A stretch of 64,000 nt of DNA from Catajapyx aquilonaris. Lineage: Eukaryota. This document shows positions 13,621-62,632 of this stretch, in pieces. The DNA lies in assembly GCA_000934665.2 (NCBI GenBank), contig JYFJ02000840.1:1-64000 (forward strand). Direction: 5' to 3'. The position numbers and the translations under genes are program-made. The first letter of the stretch is position 1. Each line of letters opens with the position of its first letter. Below the pieces are notes generated by a model. The model did not search any database and was not told the origin of the DNA. It was given only the letters and a program-made list of their open reading frames with translations.

Positions 13621-15050
13621 TACATACATAACGTGACTTAGTAATAAGAAGATTTCTCTGCAGAAACCTTGAGAATTCATAGACAATAGCGCAGATTTGT
13701 CAGCTGGGGTTGGGCATTTCCAACTGCTTGTGAGGCAAGCAATAAAGTTAGATTTGTCTCCGAGTGATGCTGACAATGAGTTGATTATCGCAGCCTAATT
13801 TACGATCCTCTTCGCCTGACAACCCGGGTCAATAAAGTAATTTGCTGAGCTGCCTTTCGGACTATACTAGTATCGATGGCATCCCGGGTTGGCTTCTCTT
13901 GCGCTTCATGCCACGCATCATGCTCTTTCTTATTAGTCTTTAAGTTATTTCAGGAACAAGCAGGCGTCAGATTCGCCCTCTTTCTTCCCCCAGAGATAAC
14001 ACTGAACGCCTTTGCGATACTTTTCATTGGATGTCAAGATAGCGAGTTTCTTCCCACAATCTTGGTTTATTGTTCTGTACTTGAAGCACTTCCACCATCT
14101 TCGTGCTCTGCTATCTGGAGAATTATTGATTATTCTTAGTCTATGAAATAGATGAACGGCCTAATAAAAATGCATCTATAGCTATGCACCATGCTTTAGG
14201 CTACAATATTAGTGCTGATAAAAGAGAGCAGAGCAGCATAGAGAATCTGTTGCACAGTGTCTATACCAACGAAACCTAATAAGACTGTCGAGCGTTAATT
14301 TTGTACAGCATATTCATGCACGACTTTGTAGATTCCCAGAGGTTCCTGACTCGATTAGCTTACAGACATCAGAGCTTCAGAAACGGTGTATTAAGCAAGA
14401 ATTAATAGGCGACGTCCATGCAGCTTTCCGCATTTAATCACCTATTATTATCATTACTGAGACGGTCATTCACAGAGTCTTAGCTACAAGCCGCAACTAC
14501 TCGAGAGAGTTGCTCTAATTAACGTGCATCCTAATTCGGAGTGTTTAGTAAGGGCGTGCAGCTCTCTGAAATCCTCCCAAATCATGGCACGAACTCACTT
14601 TTAATTACAGTATTCTATTCTACCTCCCGCGCTGCCTATCAAAAAACTGTTTAGGCCAAACATTATCCTGGACTGCACACAACCATCAGAACTTCAGAAA
14701 AGTGGTGTTTACTATGCCAACATTTACCCTGCCAGCACGTTGTCGGTTATTTTTGACATATCATGTTTCGCGTGCCGTCCTATACATCAGTGCTGGCATG
14801 AATATTTCAGGTCTTTCTCTAACAATATTTCCTTTCACAACAACACTACCATGTGCCTTCCAGCTGACACACACCCTGCAAGCTTACTGCAAGCAGTAGA
14901 TTCTGTCGCCTACACGCAGTACTTTGGCTTCCTATCCTGTCACGCTACAAGCTCTAGGGTACTATTTTGCACTGTATAAAACGACGTGCTTAATATTCCC
15001 CTCCCTTTTGTGCCTCCCCCCCCCCTTCCCCCTGGATCTGATATTTGCAG

Positions 15051-15428
15051 GTAAAGCGCTTCCGGATGGAAACAAAGGCAGCCAAGACGCTGGGGATAAT
15101 CGTGGGCGGATTCATCGTGTGCTGGCTGCCCTTCTTCACCATCTACGTGATCCGGGCCTTTTGCCCCGAGTGCATCTCCCCTCTTCTCTTCTCTGTCTTC
15201 TTCTGGTTGGGCTACTGCAACTCGGCGCTCAACCCTTGTATCTACGCCCTATTCAGCAAGGACTTCCGCTTCGCCTTCAAGAAGCTGTTGTGTGGCAGTT
15301 GCAAGCGTCGCCGTCGACTACCCCCTACCCCCATTCCCAACCCTCCCATCTACCTCAGCTCCCTAGGAGACGACAGCGAGGGCACCAATGACCAAGGATC
15401 AGATTCCAGGTGCGTACCTACACCATGA
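15051..15428 (+). CDS. Oamb: Alpha-adrenergic-like octopamine receptor (OAMB/OA1-type class A GPCR), 3' coding exon: end of ICL3, TM6, TM7, helix 8, C-tail
   Basis: Phase-0 acceptor (tttgcag|) after a pyrimidine tract. Translation VKRFRMETKAAKTLGIIVGGFIVCWLPFF...WLGYCNSALNPCIYALFSKDFRFAFKK contains CWxPFF and NPxIY and the RFRMETKAAKT signature of OAMB-like receptors. TM1-TM5 exons were not found, so they probably lie upstream of base 1. Confidence 0.92.
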   Translation, partial: VKRFRMETKAAKTLGIIVGGFIVCWLPFFTIYVIRAFCPECISPLLFSVFFWLGYCNSALNPCIYALFSKDFRFAFKKLLCGSCKRRRRLPPTPIPNPPIYLSSLGDDSEGTNDQGSDSRCVPTP

Positions 15429-36458: not shown

Positions 36459-37928
36459 GGATTTTTGTCATATAATACCTGATTTTTTTAAGGAGGAAGG
36501 GAAGGCACGTAACTTGGCCAACGTAAAGCTTTATTGCGTGTAACATTGCTAATGACATTGTTCCTACATTACCTTGTTGTAGTATAGGAAATTGTGGGAA
36601 ATGGTTTGGAAAAAGGCGCCAATGGTGAACTTTTACGTGATTTCCAGACGACTGGACTCTTTTTTTAAAATGGTTCCTTCGCCGGGATCTCTTGGTATGG
36701 GTTCCACAGCCCATACCACTAGCCCTGCCCCCTTACAAAAAACTTAGCAATTGGTCCACTTATTGTCCAGGAAGCCGCTTTGGTTCATTTTTGGCAATTT
36801 GTAAGGCTACGTAACTTCCTTGTTTTATGCTAAAAGGTGATTGTAACTTGAGAAACTGTAAACTTGTGCCAGCGTGAGTTACATAAGTTGCATTCCAACT
36901 TCTAAAAGTGCATTTGGTGCGTACATTTTCGGAACGTGACCTTTTAGGGAAGAAATTGATTTGTCACAGTAGAAAGGTCACCACCTTGTCCAATTTACAT
37001 AGGAATGCCTACTGTGACGTCACAACAAGCACCAACATATTCAGCGCTGAAAGTAAATATTACTGCAAGCTAATGCTTTAGATAAGTTAGTGCAGCTAAA
37101 TGCTAGAGTTGTGTGTAGAGATGTTTTATAAGTCTGAAATCTACATTAGAGTATATCTATATGACATGAAATCCAAAATGTATGTCACCGTTCATGTTCT
37201 GTCATATATTGCAGAAACAAGCTAAAGGCCTCGCTGGTGATGACAGGCTGAGGTTATAATCCTATACACTGTACCGTTAGGAAATTTTTGTATTGTTTCT
37301 ACTTAATCGAGACGCACTAGGTTAAGTTTTTCGAAGACCAATCACTATAATCAAAATTAAAAAGTTGGGCCTTTCTGTCTACATAGCGTCTCCTACACGG
37401 GAAAAATATACATTATTCACATTTGTTACATGCTCGTTCCCCTGGTGCTCGATAATTTGACTTCAACATTGTAAAGGGATGGATTTTTGCATCGGGAAAA
37501 ATTCGGTACCGTATACTTCAGATTCTCTTAGGTGAGAGTGGTGCCGATTACCAAATTTAACTGAATTCTTGTCGGATGATAACTTGTGCAATATACCAGT
37601 GAATCCGATCCAAATAAAATGCAGCATCTTTGGTAATGGCCACACTGCAACTCCAAAGTAAAAACGCGCCCCAGACATTTCCCCCCACCCCCCATACTCT
37701 ACACTTGCACCTCAGAGTCAGTTGCTAATCATAATCAAATAAACCAGTGGCATATCCTGCGGGAAATGTGAGTCGACACCACCCTCAACAGTGATCCCCG
37801 AACTGCATCATCCATCCAGGTTAGTTAGATCCACTTGTGGACGTCAGCAAATGAATGCTGAGAGGCAAAAGAGGTCTCCTGAGGCTAGTGGCTTGGAGTA
37901 CTGAGTGTCTTTTGGCCTGCGCAGGTCA

Positions 37929-38064
37929 TCATGTCCAGACCCGAGCAACCCGCAAAAGGAAGATCAACATGGTCACCAGCGCACCTCCGGAGAGTGAGAT
38001 TAGACCCGGTGACCCGTTGCATCCATCTGCGTCGTCACAGCTCTGCAGACAACCACGGACGTAC
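37929..38064 (-). CDS. Ly6/uPAR three-finger (quiver-like) GPI-anchored protein, terminal coding exon 4
   Basis: Phase-2 acceptor ttccag|. Encodes YVRGCLQSCDDADGCN (terminal C..CN of the LU domain), then GSPGLISLSGGALVTMLIFLLRVARVWT*, a GPI-signal-like hydrophobic tail. Confidence 0.9.
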
Positions 38065-39235
38065 CTGGAACCATGTACGCTATATTACAGCCGATACTTT
38101 CTCCAAGATAGGTAGGTGCTATGCCTACATTAGTATAACAAATTATTGCACAAGTTGCTTTTGTCAAGAAAATATATGCAGCTGGTTTATACAAGATGAT
38201 TGAACACAAATGCTTCGGACTGTCATGCGGTTCTGGTGTAGGCTATATTCAATCAGCTGTATAAATCAGTAGGCATATAGTCTACTACTCTATTTGCCAA
38301 GTAATACTTAATACCAGGCAAAAAATTGGCACATTTTCTAATGAGTACTACATGAAACTTTGCTAATGGTAGTTTGCTGTAAGATCAATTTCAAACTGCT
38401 CTACACTCTAACTCGTATCGTCCCGACGAGCCAACTGAGCGTAAGAGCCCAAATGCAAACTTGACAGGAGAGCGAAACGCGTTCATATCGCAGTCACTGA
38501 ATCTTGATATTTCAGACCCACGGGAGCTGCCTGAGTGCCCATTACTTTTTAATGTGCCAGAATTGATGGCAACAAAAAAATTGAGAGGGAAGCAATTAGA
38601 TTTATTACTGGAACATGTCCTTGCTTCGCAGAATCTGATCAAGTGACGTTAATGACATATGTCACATATATGCACCGAATGCGCTAAAAGAAAGCAAAGT
38701 GGCTGCAAGTAGCTCTCCATAAATTGGCCCGTGCGGGACGAACAGTGGTGCAGTAGCAAAGCATAACAAGAGTGTGTCGGTTTCAAAAGTGTTATATCTC
38801 ATACGCTGATGCTTCTTGATGCAAAGCTGCAACGAATCTGCGTGAGAAGCAGTGCTCACACGGCATTACGTGACATACACTGATTTTGAAAAGAGTAGTT
38901 CAAAAAACATGCCCTGCACAAACTCAAATACATTATGCCATACCCTACAGTTAACCCTCAAAGAGGAACTACTCTCTTCATCAGGTGCAGAAAGAGACAG
39001 AAAGTGAGTGTGTCAGCCAAAGGTGTGAAAAGCGTCAGGGGGACGGGGGACAAGGCAGAAAAGAAAGCGCCTCTCCAGCAACATCTTGTGCTTGTCGCTG
39101 GTCATCTTCGGCAGTGAGAATTTCTGGGATCAGGGCCTCCTCCGTCCTCCCCAGCAGACCCAACACACCCCATTCCCTTCCACCCCTCATTTGGTTTTGT
39201 TTGAAAAAAGGTCGGTTCTCCTTGACCCCTGCTAC

Positions 39236-39350
39236 CTGTCATCAAAGTAGAAGCCCCCACAGTGTGACATCCGAATGATCTCGGTGTCGGTGGTAAGGGT
39301 TCCGCTGTCCAAGGCGCAGCCTCGCACCTTCACCGTCTCCCCAGAGTCGC
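39236..39350 (-). CDS. Ly6/uPAR protein, alternative coding exon 3b (downstream copy)
   Basis: Acceptor tttcag|, donor AG|gtagca, 115 nt, phase 1 to 2. Encodes GDSGETVKVRGCALDSGTLTTDTEIIRMSHCGGFYFDDR. Confidence 0.92.
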
Positions 39351-39558
39351 CTGAAATTGGAGGGAGGACCAACGTGCTTCTCACTACCATCTCACCAATC
39401 TCTTTCTCTCTCTCTTGCCCCCGCCCGTGATGGCCTCGGTAGGGGGGAAATATCGTGCCTTTTTTCAATTCAGGCAGAATAATGTGGGCACGTGCATTTG
39501 TGGACTGGGTGTGTGTCAGTGGTAGTAGGCAAGGAGGAAAGACGAGCCGTTCTCTGTC

Positions 39559-39693
39559 ATAATCAAATCTGATCCGGACTATTGCGCAGCCTACTACGCA
39601 TAAAAGTCCACTGCGCAGCCTACTGCGCATAAAGGGTCCACTGCGCATCCAATCTGCACAGAATGAATACGAGTCCAGATCAGTTACGATTAT
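39559..39693. mobile_element. Small MITE-like foldback with internal tandem repeats, between the two alternative exons
   Basis: Imperfect 22-bp inverted ends (ATAATCAAATCTGATCCGGACT / AGTCCAGATCAGTTACGATTAT) enclose about 2.5 copies of a 29-30 bp unit containing TGCGCA palindromes. Confidence 0.5.
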
Positions 39694-39841
39694 TGCCAGA
39701 AACAACGGCCCTTAATAAAACTCAATCGAGTTTTACTAATTAACCCCCAAATCATGTCACGCAGTGGTTCGCTGATTGACGTATATGTGACCTATGGTGG
39801 ATGTGTCGGTTGCGGTCATTCATTCACCCTTGAGACCCTAC

Positions 39842-39956
39842 CTCTCCTCGAAGACGAAGCTGCCGCAGTGGCTCATCCGGACCATCTCCGTGTCCATTGT
39901 GAGGGATCCGCTGTCCAAGGCGCACGCTCGGACAATCATCGTCTCGTACGTGTCCG
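39842..39956 (-). CDS. Ly6/uPAR protein, alternative coding exon 3a (upstream copy; not in the ORF track in this frame)
   Basis: Acceptor cctcttgcag|, donor AG|gtaggg, 115 nt, phase 1 to 2. Encodes ADTYETMIVRACALDSGSLTMDTEMVRMSHCGSFVFEER. Confidence 0.88.
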
Positions 39957-42659
39957 CTGCAAGAGGTATACGTCCGACCCTTTCGGAACATTTTCTCCAA
40001 CCACATGCTAGGACACACTACCCTCTCATACATACATTTCGTCAACCCAAATAATTTTTGCAAAGAGTCAGGAAATTGCAAAAAAAAAAGCCTCAGGAGC
40101 GAGGTGATTAATTTCCGCAACGAAGCATTTTGGGGCAATTTTGGTCTTTTCCGGCCTAAATAGAAGAGGCGAGTGAAGGATGTATGGAATGTAAAATCAC
40201 TCAAGGTTTTTGCAGGGCGAAAACTAAAGGGGGTTAACGGTTTTCAACTGCATGCCGTTTGTTTATTGATCGGTTGGGGCCAACTGTTTATGGCTGTCTC
40301 CCACATTAATTAGCAGCCGAAACGGCTACGGACAGGGGAATTTTGAAAAGGTCATGAAGATGCATGCGCAGTGGTCAGCAGGAGCAGCAGAATATGCTCT
40401 CGGCAGTGCCTGCTCACTCAACTTGCTGCATACGTCATCTTAATGAGTTGCTACGAAGATCTGTCAGCAGCCAAGACCAGCTAACAAGCGACACGGTAAA
40501 ACTAGTGTTATTAATGCTACCTTACATTCGAGCAAAAAAAGGGCATTATTCTTCATGAGAGTATACCGCAATTTTTGGTTTTTACATATGTTACAAAAAA
40601 AAATGTTGCGCACTTACCGAACCTACATTAGGAGACTTAAATTACCGAAGTTCAAAGAATTTTCTTGCTGTTTTAAAACCGTTTTTCACCAAAAACTAGG
40701 CTAAAGCATCCCTTGTGCAAACTCTTTTTCCCATTAGACTACTAATAACTTGCTACACTTTAGGCCTCGAGGGCGATTATTTTGGCTCAAAATATGCGCG
40801 CAGTTTAGCTAACTATAAAAAGTGGTTTGGAATCATTTCCTTTGCACAACTGCCTACTTTTCTACTGTAAGTAGAGCATGGTATATTTCCCGACCTCCAG
40901 AGATTAATATTAATTGGCCGTTCAAATGAGCTCCACTTAATCATGCTGGGACAAAAGCCCATGCACAATGGATGCTCACGTCTCACTTCACAGTTTTATG
41001 ATAATAGACTATTTGTAATTCTTTTGAAAATGTTAAAATCCTACATTTGCCATTAGTGCTTGAGTACTTCGCTGAAAAAGCCTATTTTACACCCCATGAG
41101 CCTCAACTTCAGCCTATACAGGGTTAAAACTTAAAAGAGATAGCCTGACTTATCGTCAAATATTAGTCTTCACTGACAGTGCCGATTTAAAATTAATGCA
41201 GCTGCAATTATCCAAATAGGGTGTTTACGTACCGGTACTTCTGTCGCAATTTTTGTAAGCGCATTCTACGCTAACATACAAAAATGCTGCCGTCCATATG
41301 TATTGAAACTTTTTTGTATTCCTGAGGTGTAGAACATGTCAGGTTTCTGACAAAGGAACGGAAACACCCACATTCGGACCAGAGAAACATGAGTTCAGCT
41401 AGTTAATTTGAGTCCCAAATAGCGACTCATACCAGGCCAAGTAATTTCTTACCACATCAAAGTCTTGCTGTTTAGAAACCAAAATGGTTAAGCTCGGTTG
41501 AAGCTCTAGAAACACAGACCTCTCAGTAGTTGTCACACGCAAGACGGTGAACTTCGCAAATGGCGAGCCACAAGATTAATTCAAATTTGCGGCCAGAATC
41601 ACACACTCGGAATTTGCTCCAGATCCCAAACCCACGACGTCAGCACACAGTCTTCATGAGAATCACCTCCTTATTCCCTTGAATACGATGCCCTTAAAAA
41701 GGGTCTGTCTGCCATAAAAGGCTTGGAAGGTACGGTATTCAACATGTGTGCTGCCGCCGAAAGTTCGCAAAGGGGACACTTGAGGGCAGACATTTCGGGG
41801 TCTTTTAGATTCTGAAGGCAATCGAGAAGAAAGAAGCGGCGGGAAAAGCCTCGAATGAACGTTCCGGACATACCTCAGGCCAAAGGGAACTCCATTCCCA
41901 CGATGCAATTTGGCCTTCCTAAATCATAATGGTGTGCCCGGGAGAGAGGACTATACATAAATATAGACACAGCGATGTGAGTTGGTAAGGAAGGAAGGAA
42001 AGCAGGGTGAGGGCCTGCTATTATGGCCTCGCAAGAGCGGCTTCGGACACTGGAAGAATGTCCTAATAACAAAGTTGAAGCAGCTATCTGGACTTTGCCC
42101 TGGGCCTATCTAAAGCTAGGTGCGAAAATAGTTTGGTGCCATTCGGGGCATTGAAGGCGAGAGGAACTTCCGACAAACCCGCATAGTTTCCGACTTGTGC
42201 AAATGTCAGACACCACACTTGAAACTGACCTACTTACAGTGTAAACGCTCATAATATTGTTTGATTGATTTTCAGGAGGGCGACAAAGTGTTAGGTCTCC
42301 AAAATGGCTGTAAAGTGGGACGGATTAGATGAAAAGTAGCCCAGGACGGAAACTCGGCCAGTCATTCATTCTCAGACCGTCATCCCGGGAAAAAAAAGTA
42401 ATGCGGGTACTTTCCTGAACCAGAAGGTACAGGGCGAACCAGAATCTGAGATGGATAAAGTCTAGGTCGCTGCTTAAAGCCAATGGACAGACAGGCCATC
42501 CTTCTTCATCACCACCCGATTATCGTACCCGTCTATCTTATAGCCCTGTCCTCCACTGGGATTTGGAGGATGATAGTCTGTAGTCACGTAGTACATTCCA
42601 CTTAAACTGTTAGACCGAGTTAACGAATATGGTAAGTTTTCTCCAGTGGATTGTCTTAC

Positions 42660-42839
42660 CATAGACTCCAGCCAGTTTGATGCAGGCCGTGGCTGGAAAG
42701 AGTCCATTACGACCCTTCCGGCCACCCATGCATGGCGACTCCAAAATGGTCGCAGAGTAGTTGTTGTGAAAAGGATCTTCGCAAGCAGGATTGTCTCCAT
42801 TGATAGACACACACTTGAAGCAGTCGATAAATCCACTGC
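42660..42839 (-). CDS. Ly6/uPAR protein, coding exon 2
   Basis: Acceptor ctctttccag|, donor G|gtaaga, 180 nt, phase 1-1. Encodes SGFIDCFKCVSINGDNPACEDPFHNNYSATILESPCMGGRKGRNGLFPATACIKLAGVY (CxxC start of the LU domain). The spliced 172-aa product has 10 LU-domain cysteines. Confidence 0.92.
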
Positions 42840-45800: not shown

Positions 45801-47234
45801 TACTAATAGCGCAAATGCGTGTAAAAGCACTATCGGCATGGACCCAACATTATTTGGCAATATATTATGTCTTCATTTTTTTTCCGAAAATACATTCTGA
45901 TACATTGTTGTTCTTTCATCCATCAATGCAAACATGAATCTGCAATGAAAACAGTTCGACAAACACAGACTGTAACAAAATAATATTTTCGTTCGGTAGT
46001 TTGCAATGAGGAGAGACTCTGTAGGGGTCCTCCGAGACACCGTATTGTGTTTTGTTTGCCGACAACTCACAAAGGACAGTTATCTCAATCAATGGGGACT
46101 CTAAGTGGAGGCTAGAGGGTGAAGGTAGGCAATGTTTACATTTCGTTATGGCAGAAATTGGATTTTCATTAGAGTGTCTTCCTCCGGGAAATCAGCGGGA
46201 AATGAAAAGGGGAATTGGGGAGGCTTGGGAGGAGGGAGGGTGTTCCTTTTAACTCTATCTACCTGTCGCCGTCTCAACTAACTTCTCAGACTACAGTTTC
46301 TAGCAATTAGACTCTCCAAAGGCTCTTTGCGCAACTAACAAGAGACGTTTTTTTGTCTTTCCTTCCCGGCTGTGAAACAAAAGGTAGCGCAATCTCCGCT
46401 GCCTCCGGAGCGCTTCCGGAACTCCAGGATGGCAAAGAAAGGAAGGAAGGAAGAAACGTGTCTCCAAATTACGGTTTACGCCTTTACTTTGGACGTCCAG
46501 CTATTACTACGGACACAAGGAAGAAAATATTTGGACAGGATGAAAAATGATGCTATTTTTTCCAACATGGCGTCTTTCTCGCCAAGTCTGCTGCAGATAA
46601 GATAGCAACCGGGTGACACGATAGTCACTTCAGCACAACCAATATTTGAACCGCGTTGTCCTTGACGAACGACGGTGAAGAGGATGTACGAGTCTATATT
46701 GCGGGTAGGATGAAGGCTGAGGTGAGATGAAAGCTAACGCGAGCTTAACGCAATTACTATGTGAGACCACCGAGATGTCAGGATGAATAATTCTAGCTAC
46801 GTCAGAGGCGGCTTCTTATTCAGTGCATGTATACTGCCGGTAACAAGGTTATCAACAATACATGGCATACAAAGAGCTCGAGTCGTAAGAATGTTATAAT
46901 TTATTTGGCCCCTGTAGTTTTCGGTTTCCACAATTAATAGCAAAGAATGGAAGGCAGAAGATGTAGCTGCTGCTGGTGACGTCAATTGCTTCAGCTGACA
47001 TTTCGACGTCACATTTTAATATCTGGAACAGCCCGAAGCCGATGTTCCCTCTCCCGCCCCTCCACACTTGCCTTCTTCTGACTTTTACGGTACAAACGTC
47101 TCTTTGAGAGCTGGGCAAATATTTGTACTCTAGTGGAAAGTATTGCGCAGCTTTTGGTACTTCGCTTATCTACTAGCGGGCAATTTTTTTCAAAGGAAAG
47201 GGAAATTGGCAACATAGATAAAGAGAAATCTCAC

Positions 47235-47322
47235 CTTCATTGAGGCACAGGGTCAGGAGTAGAAATATTATCGGCTGGATGCTGTAGCAGCACCTCCACA
47301 TAATTCTCGTCTTTGGTCCCAT
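47235..47322 (-). CDS. Ly6/uPAR protein, coding exon 1 (signal peptide)
   Basis: Acceptor ttttcag| 7 nt before the ATG implies an upstream non-coding exon. Encodes MGPKTRIMWRCCYSIQPIIFLLLTLCLNE(G). The phase-1 donor G|gtgaga matches exon 2. Confidence 0.72.
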
Positions 47323-47345
47323 AGGTCACCTGAAAATAATCATCG

Positions 47346-57200: not shown

Positions 57201-59434
57201 ACAGCTGCAAAATTGATTGAAACTTGTTTCGAGCGGAACATCCAACTCGCATCCGTGAGTCTCAGAGTTTGAAATTGCACCCATGGGGTGTTTTCCCCAG
57301 TTTGTCACAAATTTGCACCAGCGATGTGGCTGCGTGGGGTTAAGACAAGCAAATAAACCCGTTTGGGCATTGCAAACCCGGTTCAGGTGGGCATCCAGCC
57401 AAATGCTACACGCTGAATTAGTCCTACGAATCGGATACCAGTTAACATATGTTGTCAGTGTACCTTTTTCCGGTGACTTCACAGGATTAGCATCGATATT
57501 GCCACCGACCCTGGTGCATGAGAAAACCAACATTTCACACGCTCCCCTAGTTTCCAACCTCATGTAATAGATCTCTCGTGTCATTTTTTTTTTGTGCAAG
57601 TTACGCGGAATGTTATACGAGAACATCATTAAGCCTTTCGCTTGCTATTTCATATTAAGCTAGGAAAACAAATGAAGGCCGCCAAAATTGACATTCTACT
57701 GCCTCCTATGGCTTCTCATTTCCTTGACTAATTGCGTCTTTACGCTGAAATAATTAAGAAAGTTCTAACGAAGAGTAATGAGGTGCGGAATCGGTAGAAG
57801 TGTAGCGCAGAGAGGCCCTATAGGCTTTTTGCTTAAAAATATCGAATTTGGTCTCAATTTTTTTAAATATTTTGTACACGTGGTTGATGATTGGGTCTTG
57901 CTTGGGGTAGCAACCAACTGATGTTGAAACATGCGACTGACCTGTACAGTAAGGTGTGGGAAGGTAGAGGTCAGGGAAGACCGTCCATCATGAAGCTTAG
58001 CAATGTGGTGTCCAGATTGGCGTCCCGGATACGGAATACCAGCTCTTTCCGCAGACGCTCGCTTCCCACTGGCCACACTAAAGGAGAGGAGGAGAGAAGC
58101 AGGCCAGAAAAGCATGCATGCGGTGCCCATAGGACCCATCACGCCTGCGCACCCCCTCCATACATATTACCATTACAAGTTGCGAACTCGTCCATCATTT
58201 TTATGCACCAGAAAAAAACAACAGGTAACTAATATTGGCTCGCCTGCAAAAGTTACCGAAACTTTTCTTGATAATTAGCTGGAAAATTGTTCCAGTTAGT
58301 ATTAATTAGGGGCTTCTTCGATTATTTTTTTTGGAGCATGTAGCTGGTGAGGACAATCCATGGAATCAATCAGGTGTGGGGGATGAAGTAGGCTTAGGGT
58401 CAAAGTGGTGGGCATTTTATCCCGGTCTTCGAATCCCGGAGGCGGAGGCTGGCAGGGGTCGGCTGAGTGGCAAAAGGTGGCTGGCCCACCCCGCATGAAT
58501 AATGCGCTCACTGAGAAAGAGGACCATGCTGAGACCTTACCTTTTTTTGCCTCATTTCTCGATCAATCTACGGCAACCCAAGTTCGAGGAAGGACGATTA
58601 TTCCTGCCGCCATCGATCCTCAAAGCTTGCTATAAGGTCCCTTTTTTCACACTAGCTCTAGATTTTTTTTTTTTTTGCTCATCAACGCATTGCTTTATTG
58701 ATTTTCAAAACTTTTTGCTAGATTGCTAGTCGTTCCCTTAGATAGGTAAGTAAATAAATGGATTAGAGTGGCATTGCTCGATAGGAGTAAAATAATGCTG
58801 AAGTTGCAGGTGGAGTTTGTCGTTTTGGAAATTGTCACCTGGGTTGAAATCATAGTGTCTTATTGCAAAATTGCATGTTGTCCAATGTGCACTGGAGAAT
58901 GCCAGCAGGTTGAGCACCCTGCAGTTATTGTCTGCCCTATTATTAGTAAAGAATTTGATGGACCTTTGCTTCATATTAATATGGAGAACTATCATGAGAA
59001 TCGCTTTTCGAGTGACAGATTTCGCATTAATTTACTTTGGAAGTGCAATATTAAGTCGAAATATCAAATCTAACTGTGCCTCGATTCGTTATAAAAGGAG
59101 GCAAGCACTAAATTGAGTTGCTTGGTAGTACTTCTGAAAAGGAGCGCCTGATTTCCTCGAGACGCTCGATTAAGCTCATGTGCTTTCATCATCTAATATT
59201 CACTTTTTACTGTAATATACTTCTTTAACGTCTACAAGGCTTCAGAGCCACATGCCTCTTCCGTGAAACGTAATACTACCTTAATTGACACGTATACTAC
59301 TGCATTGTTGCAGCAGTAGTTCACCTCTTCCATGATTTTTTTTAAAAATACTGTGAACCCGTAAACCTTTCATATCATTTGTGGTCATGTTACTTTATGG
59401 CTTTTTTACAGTGTATGAAGTTGACAATGTTTTA

Positions 59435-61615: not shown

Positions 61616-61759
61616 TATAGAAATTAGAAATGCATGATATCATGGAATTGATTGAGGACTGACTGATAAACTATAGTACAGTACATTGTTGCCCCAGTAA
61701 GTAACATCCTTGTCATTCATTGATTTGTTCTAATTGTGTGCAATTGATCCTCCATTCAG

Positions 61760-62048
61760 GCATGAAATAATTGAATTCCCAGCAGTGCTGGTGAGTGCAT
61801 CGGAAAAGCGCATAGTGGCTGAGTTCCACAGATACTGCCAACCTTCTATGCAACCTAAGCTGAGCCAATTCTGTCGAGAGCTGACTGGAATCTCTCAGCA
61901 TCGTGTGGATCAGGCGCAAACATTTCCAACAGTCCTCTCCAGGTTTAAAGAGTGGCTGCACCAAAGAGGAATTGGTACCACTTACACATATGCTGTCGTC
62001 ACAGATGGGCCATGGGATATGGGAAGGTTTCTACGTTTACAATGCCAG
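61760..62048 (+). CDS. ERI1: 3'-5' exoribonuclease ERI1, coding exon 2; remaining exons not found in the window
   Basis: Phase-2 acceptor ccattcag|. Encodes HEIIEFPAVL...PKLSQFCRELTGISQHRVDQAQTFPTVL...VTDGPWDMGRFL, all ERI1-family motifs. Donor CAG|gtgagc. Confidence 0.93.
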
Positions 62049-62632
62049 GTGAGCCATCCAAAACATTTTCAGTTGGATTATTTTTCTTTTCTATATTCAA
62101 TGATTTTACTCTCCTTTGTATCATGAGAAGACCAGTGGGTTTAGAACTGAAGCCCCTTTACCTGTCATAAAGTTAATCTGATAAATAAGAAAAATTTCAA
62201 AGTTGTAAGGCTTCATGCCTAGTTCATTAGCAGAGCCTTCTTGTTGCCCTCATACCTCGATAACAAATCTCGATGGCATCTGAGTGGCAGGGGATTCATG
62301 AAATGTTCCGAAAAAGACCCCTCCCCACTGTGACCTCATCTTTACTATTTGCCAGCTTATGTTGTACAGAGCTATGATAAGCAGAGGTATGGCAAGAGAA
62401 AGTGAGATGCAATAATGCCTTGTAGTTAGCAGTTTATTCAAATGTTCTACCCAGCAATATTGAGACATTTAACTTGCTCCTGTACCCAACATCTGGTTTC
62501 TGGTACTCCTGAGGTCATAAAATTTCCATAGTACCTGATGGAGATTTCCTTTGACAGAACTGCCAGAGGCAAGTATTTTGGGCATTTGATCCAACAATGG
62601 GATGAGTGGTGTCTATATGGTCTTATGGAGTA

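Follow-up and report, generated by a model that had tools for sequence, protein, structure and literature searches.

Does a single small gene of the Ly6/uPAR superfamily make two proteins by choosing between two copies of one internal exon? The question is raised by a pair of homologous exons on the minus strand of a 64-kb stretch of DNA, here called the window and analysed over its whole length. The original prediction for this locus described twin 115-nt exons, each running from phase 1 to phase 2 and bounded by GT–AG introns, lying between exons 2 and 4 (one copy each) of a quiver-like gene, and proposed that they are used in a mutually exclusive manner to give two 172-aa isoforms.

Two copies of exon 3 lie in a single intron

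Reading of the minus strand and tblastn searches bore out this arrangement. The parts of the gene, together with a hairpin in the intron between the two copies, are as follows.

57942–58025, minus strand: 5′ untranslated exon, minimum extent; donor GT at 57941–57940, reading cag|gtcagt; the end of a contig of the public run X1 maps there.
47235–47329, minus strand: coding exon 1; 29 codons plus 1 base, counted from the ATG at 47322; joined to exon 2 in an X1 contig.
42660–42839, minus strand: exon 2, 180 nt; cysteines 1–5 of the three-finger domain; occurs once in the window; both junctions in an X1 contig.
39842–39956, minus strand: exon 3a, 115 nt, the type A alternative; phase 1 to 2; junction 42660>39956 in an X1 contig.
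39540–39725, minus strand: long imperfect hairpin in the 3a–3b intron, with short tandem repeats inside it; recognized by its fold energy.
39236–39350, minus strand: exon 3b, 115 nt, the type B alternative; phase 1 to 2; recognized by homology, with no RNA contig over it.
37929–38064, minus strand: coding part of exon 4; cysteines 8–10, ...GCN, hydrophobic C-terminal tail and stop TGA; single copy; contained in X1 record 1.
36600–37928, minus strand: 3′ UTR, minimum extent, from X1 record 1; the contig goes on for 84 nt past 36600.

Because exon 2 leaves one base of a codon and exon 4 supplies one, both copies of exon 3 run from phase 1 to phase 2. In the minus-strand reading, a pyrimidine-rich stretch and then cag lead into each copy, and gtag comes directly after it. 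The two copies agree at 82 of 115 bases (71%), and their in-frame peptides share 24 of 37 residues, both cysteines included, or 25 of 39 when the two split codons are counted, which reproduces the predicted figure. Of the 37 codons, the two copies have 16 in common, while synonymous differences account for 8 and non-synonymous ones for 13; the synonymous serine change (AGC/TCA) and the conservative E/D changes that had been singled out are present.

The exon-3 pair is the longest direct repeat in 38000–42700 (125 nt, 73% identical, spacing 606 nt), and this repeat search shows the similarity running out some 5 nt beyond the boundaries of each exon. When 12 orthologous proteins were searched against all 64 kb by tblastn, exon 2 was found once, exon 4 once and exon 3 twice (E 1e-9 to 1e-20); the search returned no third copy of exon 3 in the window and no second copy of exons 2 and 4, which would have pointed to two genes.

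The gene belongs with Drosophila CG31323

Exon 2 contributes five cysteines to the protein, either copy of exon 3 contributes two and exon 4 three, giving ten in all, and the domain ends in ...GCN. The N terminus is hydrophobic and resembles a signal peptide, and the C-terminal tail is also hydrophobic (both judged by eye); the tail probably serves for a GPI anchor. The arrangement agrees with the LU domain, in which 8–10 cysteines follow a conserved order and the last is followed by asparagine, and the domain cysteines are invariant or nearly so in an alignment of 60 proteins.

A search with exon 2 matched 377 proteins, nearly all from arthropods, at 77–89% identity, 89% being the best value among the proteins retrieved, which do not include one from the window's own species. 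Many of these matches carry the precomputed label PF17064 (QVR) and the automatic names ‘Protein quiver’ or ‘Protein sleepless’. The D. melanogaster member of the 90% cluster is the uncharacterised CG31323, which shares with the window gene the ten-cysteine pattern and the invariant DSG...DTE...RMSHCG motif. The name ‘quiver-like’ is thus apt at the level of the family and fails at the level of orthology, the Drosophila counterpart being CG31323 and not qvr. Scores against the Pfam QVR profile (gathering cut-off 27.3 bits) straddle the cut-off: among seven full-length orthologs, two lie above it (27.8 and 27.6), four just under it (27.2, 26.9, 26.8 and 25.7), and CG31323 gives no match at E 0.01. 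Exon 2 of the window alone reaches 15.7 bits. An ortholog match covers 111 residues on 86 profile positions, which implies an insertion of about 25 residues in the domain. QUIVER/SLEEPLESS and Lynx1, Ly6 modulators of K channels and nicotinic acetylcholine receptors, belong to the same superfamily of small cysteine-rich three-finger proteins but are not orthologs of the window gene, whose type of domain exceeds the Pfam QVR profile by about 25 residues.

AlphaFold models of the two D. pulex isoforms have mean pLDDT values of 73 (type B) and 67 (type A), and both show beta hairpins. In a Foldseek search with the D. pulex ortholog model, LU proteins came first (Lypd6b, uPAR, Lypd6, Lynx1, Lynx2 and erabutoxins), with weak values (E 0.06–0.2 at the top). 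VIA-align placed Lypd6b (Z 5.5, 88 residues aligned) and Lynx1 (Z 5.4, 70/74) among the best structural matches, at weak scores that are not above those of unrelated rows, and a wide structure search returned mostly helix matches to the signal and tail helices. We assign the gene to the Ly6/uPAR superfamily because of its cysteine pattern and family matches, the fold lending weak support. Judged from sequence, the window gene is a pancrustacean ortholog of Drosophila CG31323, a small Ly6/uPAR (QVR-type) three-finger protein.

The reading frame allows one copy at a time

Spliced by script with either 3a or 3b, the gene model encodes 172 aa, as predicted; the model required coding exon 1 (47329..47235), which a spliced contig confirms. 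The further claim that including both exons or neither breaks the frame also stands. Inclusion of both brings a stop within 3b, after 163 codons; skipping of both brings one after 110. As 115 nt is 1 mod 3, either outcome would give a truncated product without cysteines 8–10 and the anchor signal. When both exons are included, the stop precedes the last junction by just 9 nt, so that nonsense-mediated decay by the exon-junction rule is not assured.

Published criteria for clusters of mutually exclusive exons include tandem homologous exons, equal or similar length, equal phase and one exon per transcript (PMC3228551). In structure, the pair in the window conforms to such a cluster, having one shared intron, equal length, the same phases, intact splice sites and homology. 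We propose that each mRNA takes either 3a or 3b to encode a 172-aa protein, 3b presumably being spliced in this species too. Exclusivity would rest at least on the reading frame, double inclusion and double skipping each being expected to yield a truncated product; further control of exon choice might come from tissue-specific splicing factors or from RNA structure.

Three specific mechanisms were considered. Steric hindrance between splice sites is ruled out here by the 491-nt intron between 3a and 3b. Incompatibility of U2 and U12 sites is unlikely, all six splice sites being GT–AG with U2-type donors (by eye). As a docking/selector pairing, positions 40361–40379 in intron 2 are complementary to repeats at 39615–39651, an interaction that would loop out 3a; we do not count it, because it is 1 of 14 similar pairs in 4.7 kb, which is chance level, and because it has no counterpart in a Daphnia-like contig with the same exon pair (L001, described below).

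The intron between the two copies also contains the 186-nt hairpin at 39540–39725, with a fold energy of −79.1 kcal/mol and z of −6.36; 0 of 200 shuffles folded as well. Its internal tandem repeats are about 29 nt long, and the unit resembles a TGCGCC..GGAC core conserved in the exons. The hairpin occurs just once in the window and matches nothing in Rfam, so its interpretation as a transposon or a microRNA is unsupported.

RNA from this species joins exon 2 to exon 3a

RNA evidence comes from two contigs of one public run, X1 (its kind is not recorded), that match the window at 99% or more. Record 2 (459 nt) aligns on 39857–39956, 42660–42838 and 47234–47332; its joints, for example from 47234/5 to 42838/9, have CT..AC ends, which correspond to GT..AG on the minus strand, and an 81-nt loose end maps uniquely from 57945 onwards. 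The GT..AG joints and the position of the loose end at a cag|gtcagt donor indicate that this contig derives from spliced RNA. It confirms the 5′ untranslated exon, coding exon 1, exon 2 and the junction between exons 2 and 3a at exactly the predicted bases. The junction 42660>39956, one of those by which the prediction could be checked, is therefore present in one contig of one run.

Record 1 (1646 nt) spans 36600–38161, comprising the 3′ UTR, exon 4 and a 97-nt piece of the preceding intron (38065–38161), and is therefore an unspliced sequence on that side. No X1 contig lies over exon 3b, the junctions of 3b or the junction from 3a to exon 4; as contigs cannot show absence, these data are neutral as to the use of 3b.

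Among relatives, RefSeq lists isoforms that end soon after exon 3 (D. magna X4, Homarus X3 and Oratosquilla X3; P0136, P0139, P0044). Such short isoforms would have neither cysteines 8–10 nor the anchor signal. Failure to splice out the intron before exon 4 may be a recurrent feature.

Crustacean orthologs swap the same exon

Three further kinds of evidence bear on whether both copies are used: isoform pairs from single loci in crustaceans, the genomic layout in a Daphnia-like contig, and the pattern of substitution in the two copies.

First, crustacean orthologs in RefSeq list X1 and X2 isoforms of the same gene in which the same exon is swapped between the same A and B types, with the sequences identical outside that exon. 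As a 40-aa reference containing 3a matched only 2 proteins, exon-3 proteins were collected by a profile search instead. Among the matches, type A exons read ...SLTLDTEL.RMSHCG[AS]FV... and type B exons read ...TLTTDTEIIRMSHCGGFYFDD.... Ten crustacean loci had at least two retrieved isoforms, and at nine of them the isoforms differ only in exon 3, which is of type A or type B: two crabs (Portunus trituberculatus LOC123514719 and Scylla paramamosain LOC135093083), four Daphnia species (D. pulex LOC124192179, D. pulicaria LOC124341349, D. magna LOC116935961 and D. carinata LOC130685280), Homarus americanus LOC121858642, Penaeus japonicus LOC122260922 and Artemia franciscana LOC136027474. At these nine loci the annotated isoforms, which are automatic models, carry A or B and never both. 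At the tenth, from Penaeus chinensis, both retrieved isoforms are of type B.

Type A was also found in one stomatopod and two ostracods, and read-through models with an A-like and then a B-like copy were found in Hyalella and in the product of an ostracod-like contig. In the Hyalella azteca model (HAZT_HAZT004352, P0147), the two copies are only 22 residues apart, so the intron may be very short there and steric exclusion could act, unlike in the window.

In the remaining groups the picture is one of a single exon 3. At all seven hexapod loci with several isoforms (Cloeon, Homalodisca, Zootermopsis, Nilaparvata, Rhodnius, Diabrotica and Zophobas), the exon-3 segment is the same in every isoform, and the retrieved hexapod, copepod, chelicerate, myriapod and nematode proteins that we inspected each have one exon-3 sequence, B-like or intermediate. 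In Drosophila and the other retrieved hexapod proteins, unlike in the window, type B was the only kind of exon 3 seen.

Second, the genomic layout of the window recurs in L001, a contig from a metagenome collection whose peptides are identical to those of Daphnia. It has an A exon at 1705–1822 (118 nt), a 575-nt intron and a B exon at 2398–2512 (115 nt), on one strand, with AG/GT sites on both exons and both lengths 1 mod 3. The Daphnia A exon is one codon longer than exon 3a of the window (115 nt). A copepod-like contig, L002, has exon 3 once only.

Third, the substitution pattern clearly points to purifying selection on both copies, as had been claimed. By the Nei–Gojobori method, 3a and 3b differ with dN 0.26 and dS 0.79. 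In comparisons between the window and L001, pN is 0.196 and pS 0.69 for the two A exons, and pN is 0.09 with pS about 1 (saturated) for the two B exons.

From the same-locus isoform pairs, the Daphnia-like layout and the low non-synonymous change set against saturated synonymous change, we consider it very likely that the window holds one gene that gives two isoforms by mutually exclusive use of a duplicated exon 3. Mutually exclusive use, as originally predicted, is well supported by these comparisons; in this species itself, just the junction of exons 2 and 3a has been seen.

Two side observations concern other duplications in this family. Three metagenome contigs (L003, L004 and L005, the last for example at 766–1013; P0125, P0150, P0159, P0201) contain arrays of partial exon-3-like copies about 100 nt apart, with sequence ...MVRGCALDSGSLTMDTEIV...; some copies are degenerate, and they have the SLTMDTE signature in common with exon 3a of the window. 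In Homalodisca vitripennis, isoforms X1 and X2 of LOC124352811 (P0022, P0265) are identical through exon 3 and have last exons that are homologous but distinct throughout, which suggests a duplicated alternative terminal exon.

Origin of the pair

If the pair is real, as we hold, it is likely to be orthologous with the crustacean A/B pair, by the following comparisons of sequence. Exon 3b matches type B exons at 26–34 of 38 positions and type A exons at 21–25; exon 3a matches type A exons at 23–28 and type B exons at 21–26. Set against Daphnia, 3b agrees with type B at 32–34 of 38 positions (34 in D. carinata) and with type A at 22–23. In a tree of the 38 exon columns, one branch (98/76) splits the exons labelled A from those labelled B, and 3a falls on the former side, 3b on the latter. 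Constraining the type A exons and 3a to a clade gave a log-likelihood 4.8 higher than the free search had found. Three of the 38 columns separate the types strictly; 3a has the A state at two of them and the B state at none, and 3b has the B state at two and the A state at none.

The principal alternative is a separate, younger duplication in the window's own lineage, by which 3a and 3b would not be orthologous to the crustacean types and could still be used alternatively. A tree constrained to a clade of 3a and 3b has a log-likelihood 11 lower and is not rejected by the AU test (p 0.29), so that orthology of 3a with crustacean type A is favoured, not proven. Identity between the copies in the window, 25 of 38 positions, is at the top of the 20–25 range of A–B identities in other loci, and pS between them is 0.47, lower than in the other comparisons (at least 0.69). 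Against these points stand the placement of 3a with type A and 3b with type B in the free tree, the likelihood gained by the constraint on type A and 3a, the much closer match of 3b to Daphnia type B than to type A, and the agreement of the A-then-B order, phases and lengths with L001. Moreover, homology stops within 5 nt of the exons, as expected of an old duplication. Overall, we regard a younger duplication as unlikely.

The low pS within the window could reflect gene conversion, shared codon bias or a younger duplication. An 18-nt stretch is identical in both copies, synonymous sites included (39913–39930 and 39307–39324); such an identical core would also fit a younger duplication. Taken together with the low pS, it could equally come from gene conversion, RNA-level constraint or codon bias.

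It is also conceivable, at a low probability, that this species uses one copy and that the other is an unused or decaying relic. RNA has been seen for 3a only, the absence of an exon-3 alternative at 7 of 7 hexapod loci means that loss of one type does occur, and the constant parts of the window gene are most similar to those of hexapods (87%, a damselfly). Yet open frames, both cysteines, AG/GT sites and the full invariant motif are kept in both copies. Of the two, 3a, which is the one seen in RNA, is the less conserved, and 3b is of the universally conserved type; with pN of 0.09 against the Daphnia-like contig at saturated synonymous sites, 3b is too intact for a relic. That the exons belong to two neighbouring or overlapping genes, or that the pair is an artefact of assembly, for example from haplotypes left uncollapsed, is very improbable: nothing beyond the duplication itself speaks for either, exons 2 and 4 occur once each in the 64-kb window with both exon-3 copies in the single intron between them, the copies are too different for haplotypes at just 71–73% DNA identity, and the same pair is present in other species.

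We return to mutually exclusive use of an A/B pair shared with crustaceans, and to its age. In a tree of 109 columns (the constant parts plus the B exon), the window gene falls inside Pancrustacea (99/98 against chelicerates and the myriapod) and outside both the malacostracan group (87/86) and the Daphnia group, with an unresolved backbone. The highest identity of its constant parts, 87%, is to the damselfly, and the nearest rows are a springtail and insects.

A wider scenario can be offered tentatively. The A/B pair might be older than crown Pancrustacea, since the ostracod-like contig product already has an A-like and a B-like copy; branchiopods, malacostracans, ostracods and the window's lineage would then have retained it over several hundred million years, and insects and springtails would have lost it. 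Because the constant parts look closest to hexapods, the window could mark a near-hexapod lineage that kept type A. The swap would then re-aim a GPI-anchored modulator between two membrane partners, with DSG...DTE...RMSHCG held fixed.

What the swap changes in the protein

In the AlphaFold models of the D. pulex orthologs, exon 3 corresponds to residues 103–141. Within finger II it supplies the tip and the second strand, and within finger III the first strand and the tip; between the two lies a conserved loop with a short helix. The loop is modelled at low confidence, and it and the short helix carry the invariant DSG...DTE...R.SHCG residues; the core common to both isoforms is C-x2-DSG-x4-DTE-x2-R-x-SHCG. 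The 13 of 37 in-frame positions at which 3a and 3b differ flank this motif and lie in these same parts of fingers II and III and around the short helix. A swapped finger region had been predicted: in these models fingers are indeed involved, as parts of II and III with the helix loop between them and not as one finger.

In the Ly6 protein QVR/SSS, loops carry partner binding, and PMC4735452 reports that only loop 2 is needed for channel interactions. By analogy with this role of loop 2, the exon swap would most likely alter the partner bound, or the affinity for it, at the finger II/III surface. The last step of the proposed mechanism would thus be a shift in which partner protein binds.

Relation to known systems

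Mutually exclusive tandem exons are a well-known device of arthropods, with Dscam, Mhc, 14-3-3zeta and MRP among the examples (PMC6071210). The window pair resembles these clusters in its tandem homologous exons of similar length and equal phase. It differs from them in having two copies only, in that its docking/selector candidate is at chance level, and in that the frame alone penalises double inclusion. Among Ly6 genes, human LYNX1/SLURP2 swaps whole domains and the anchor, not one homologous exon inside a domain. That locus gives different three-finger proteins through alternative splicing (PMC4971505).

Full-text literature searches, which cover main texts (supplementary tables may mention the gene), found no paper describing the exon pair. 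In a study of the insect Ly6 family (PMC4476152), the main text is without ‘isoform’, ‘alternative splic’ and ‘Daphnia’ and has ‘mutually exclusive’ in another sense only. The pair was originally put forward as not previously described; this holds for the papers searched and not for the databases, RefSeq already listing both isoforms for several crustaceans. The pair is conserved and genuine, and was already implied by these models.

The CG31323 type ranks with the most conserved Ly6 proteins of arthropods, its exon 2 showing 77–89% identity over a range from ticks to flies, and yet has no known function. An A/B switch maintained by purifying selection in distant crustaceans marks the surfaces tuned to different partners or tissues, namely the tip of finger II and finger III, around a motif that is fixed. 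It gives isoform-specific knock-outs, as well as binding screens, a concrete starting point in Daphnia, Artemia or decapods. No new kind of mechanism is involved; the pair is a clean case for how mutually exclusive exons get lost, as in hexapods.

Neighbouring genes

Elsewhere in the window, an open frame at 15042–15425 on the plus strand matches the end of a rhodopsin-family seven-transmembrane receptor (PF00001, E 2.6e-16, profile positions 193–260 of 260); a GPCR gene, on the strand opposite to the Ly6 gene, probably has its terminal exon here. A second open frame on the plus strand, at 61734–62123, matches an RNase_T exonuclease domain (PF00929, E 1.6e-18), and its Atlas neighbours include a cluster of ERI1-type exoribonucleases.
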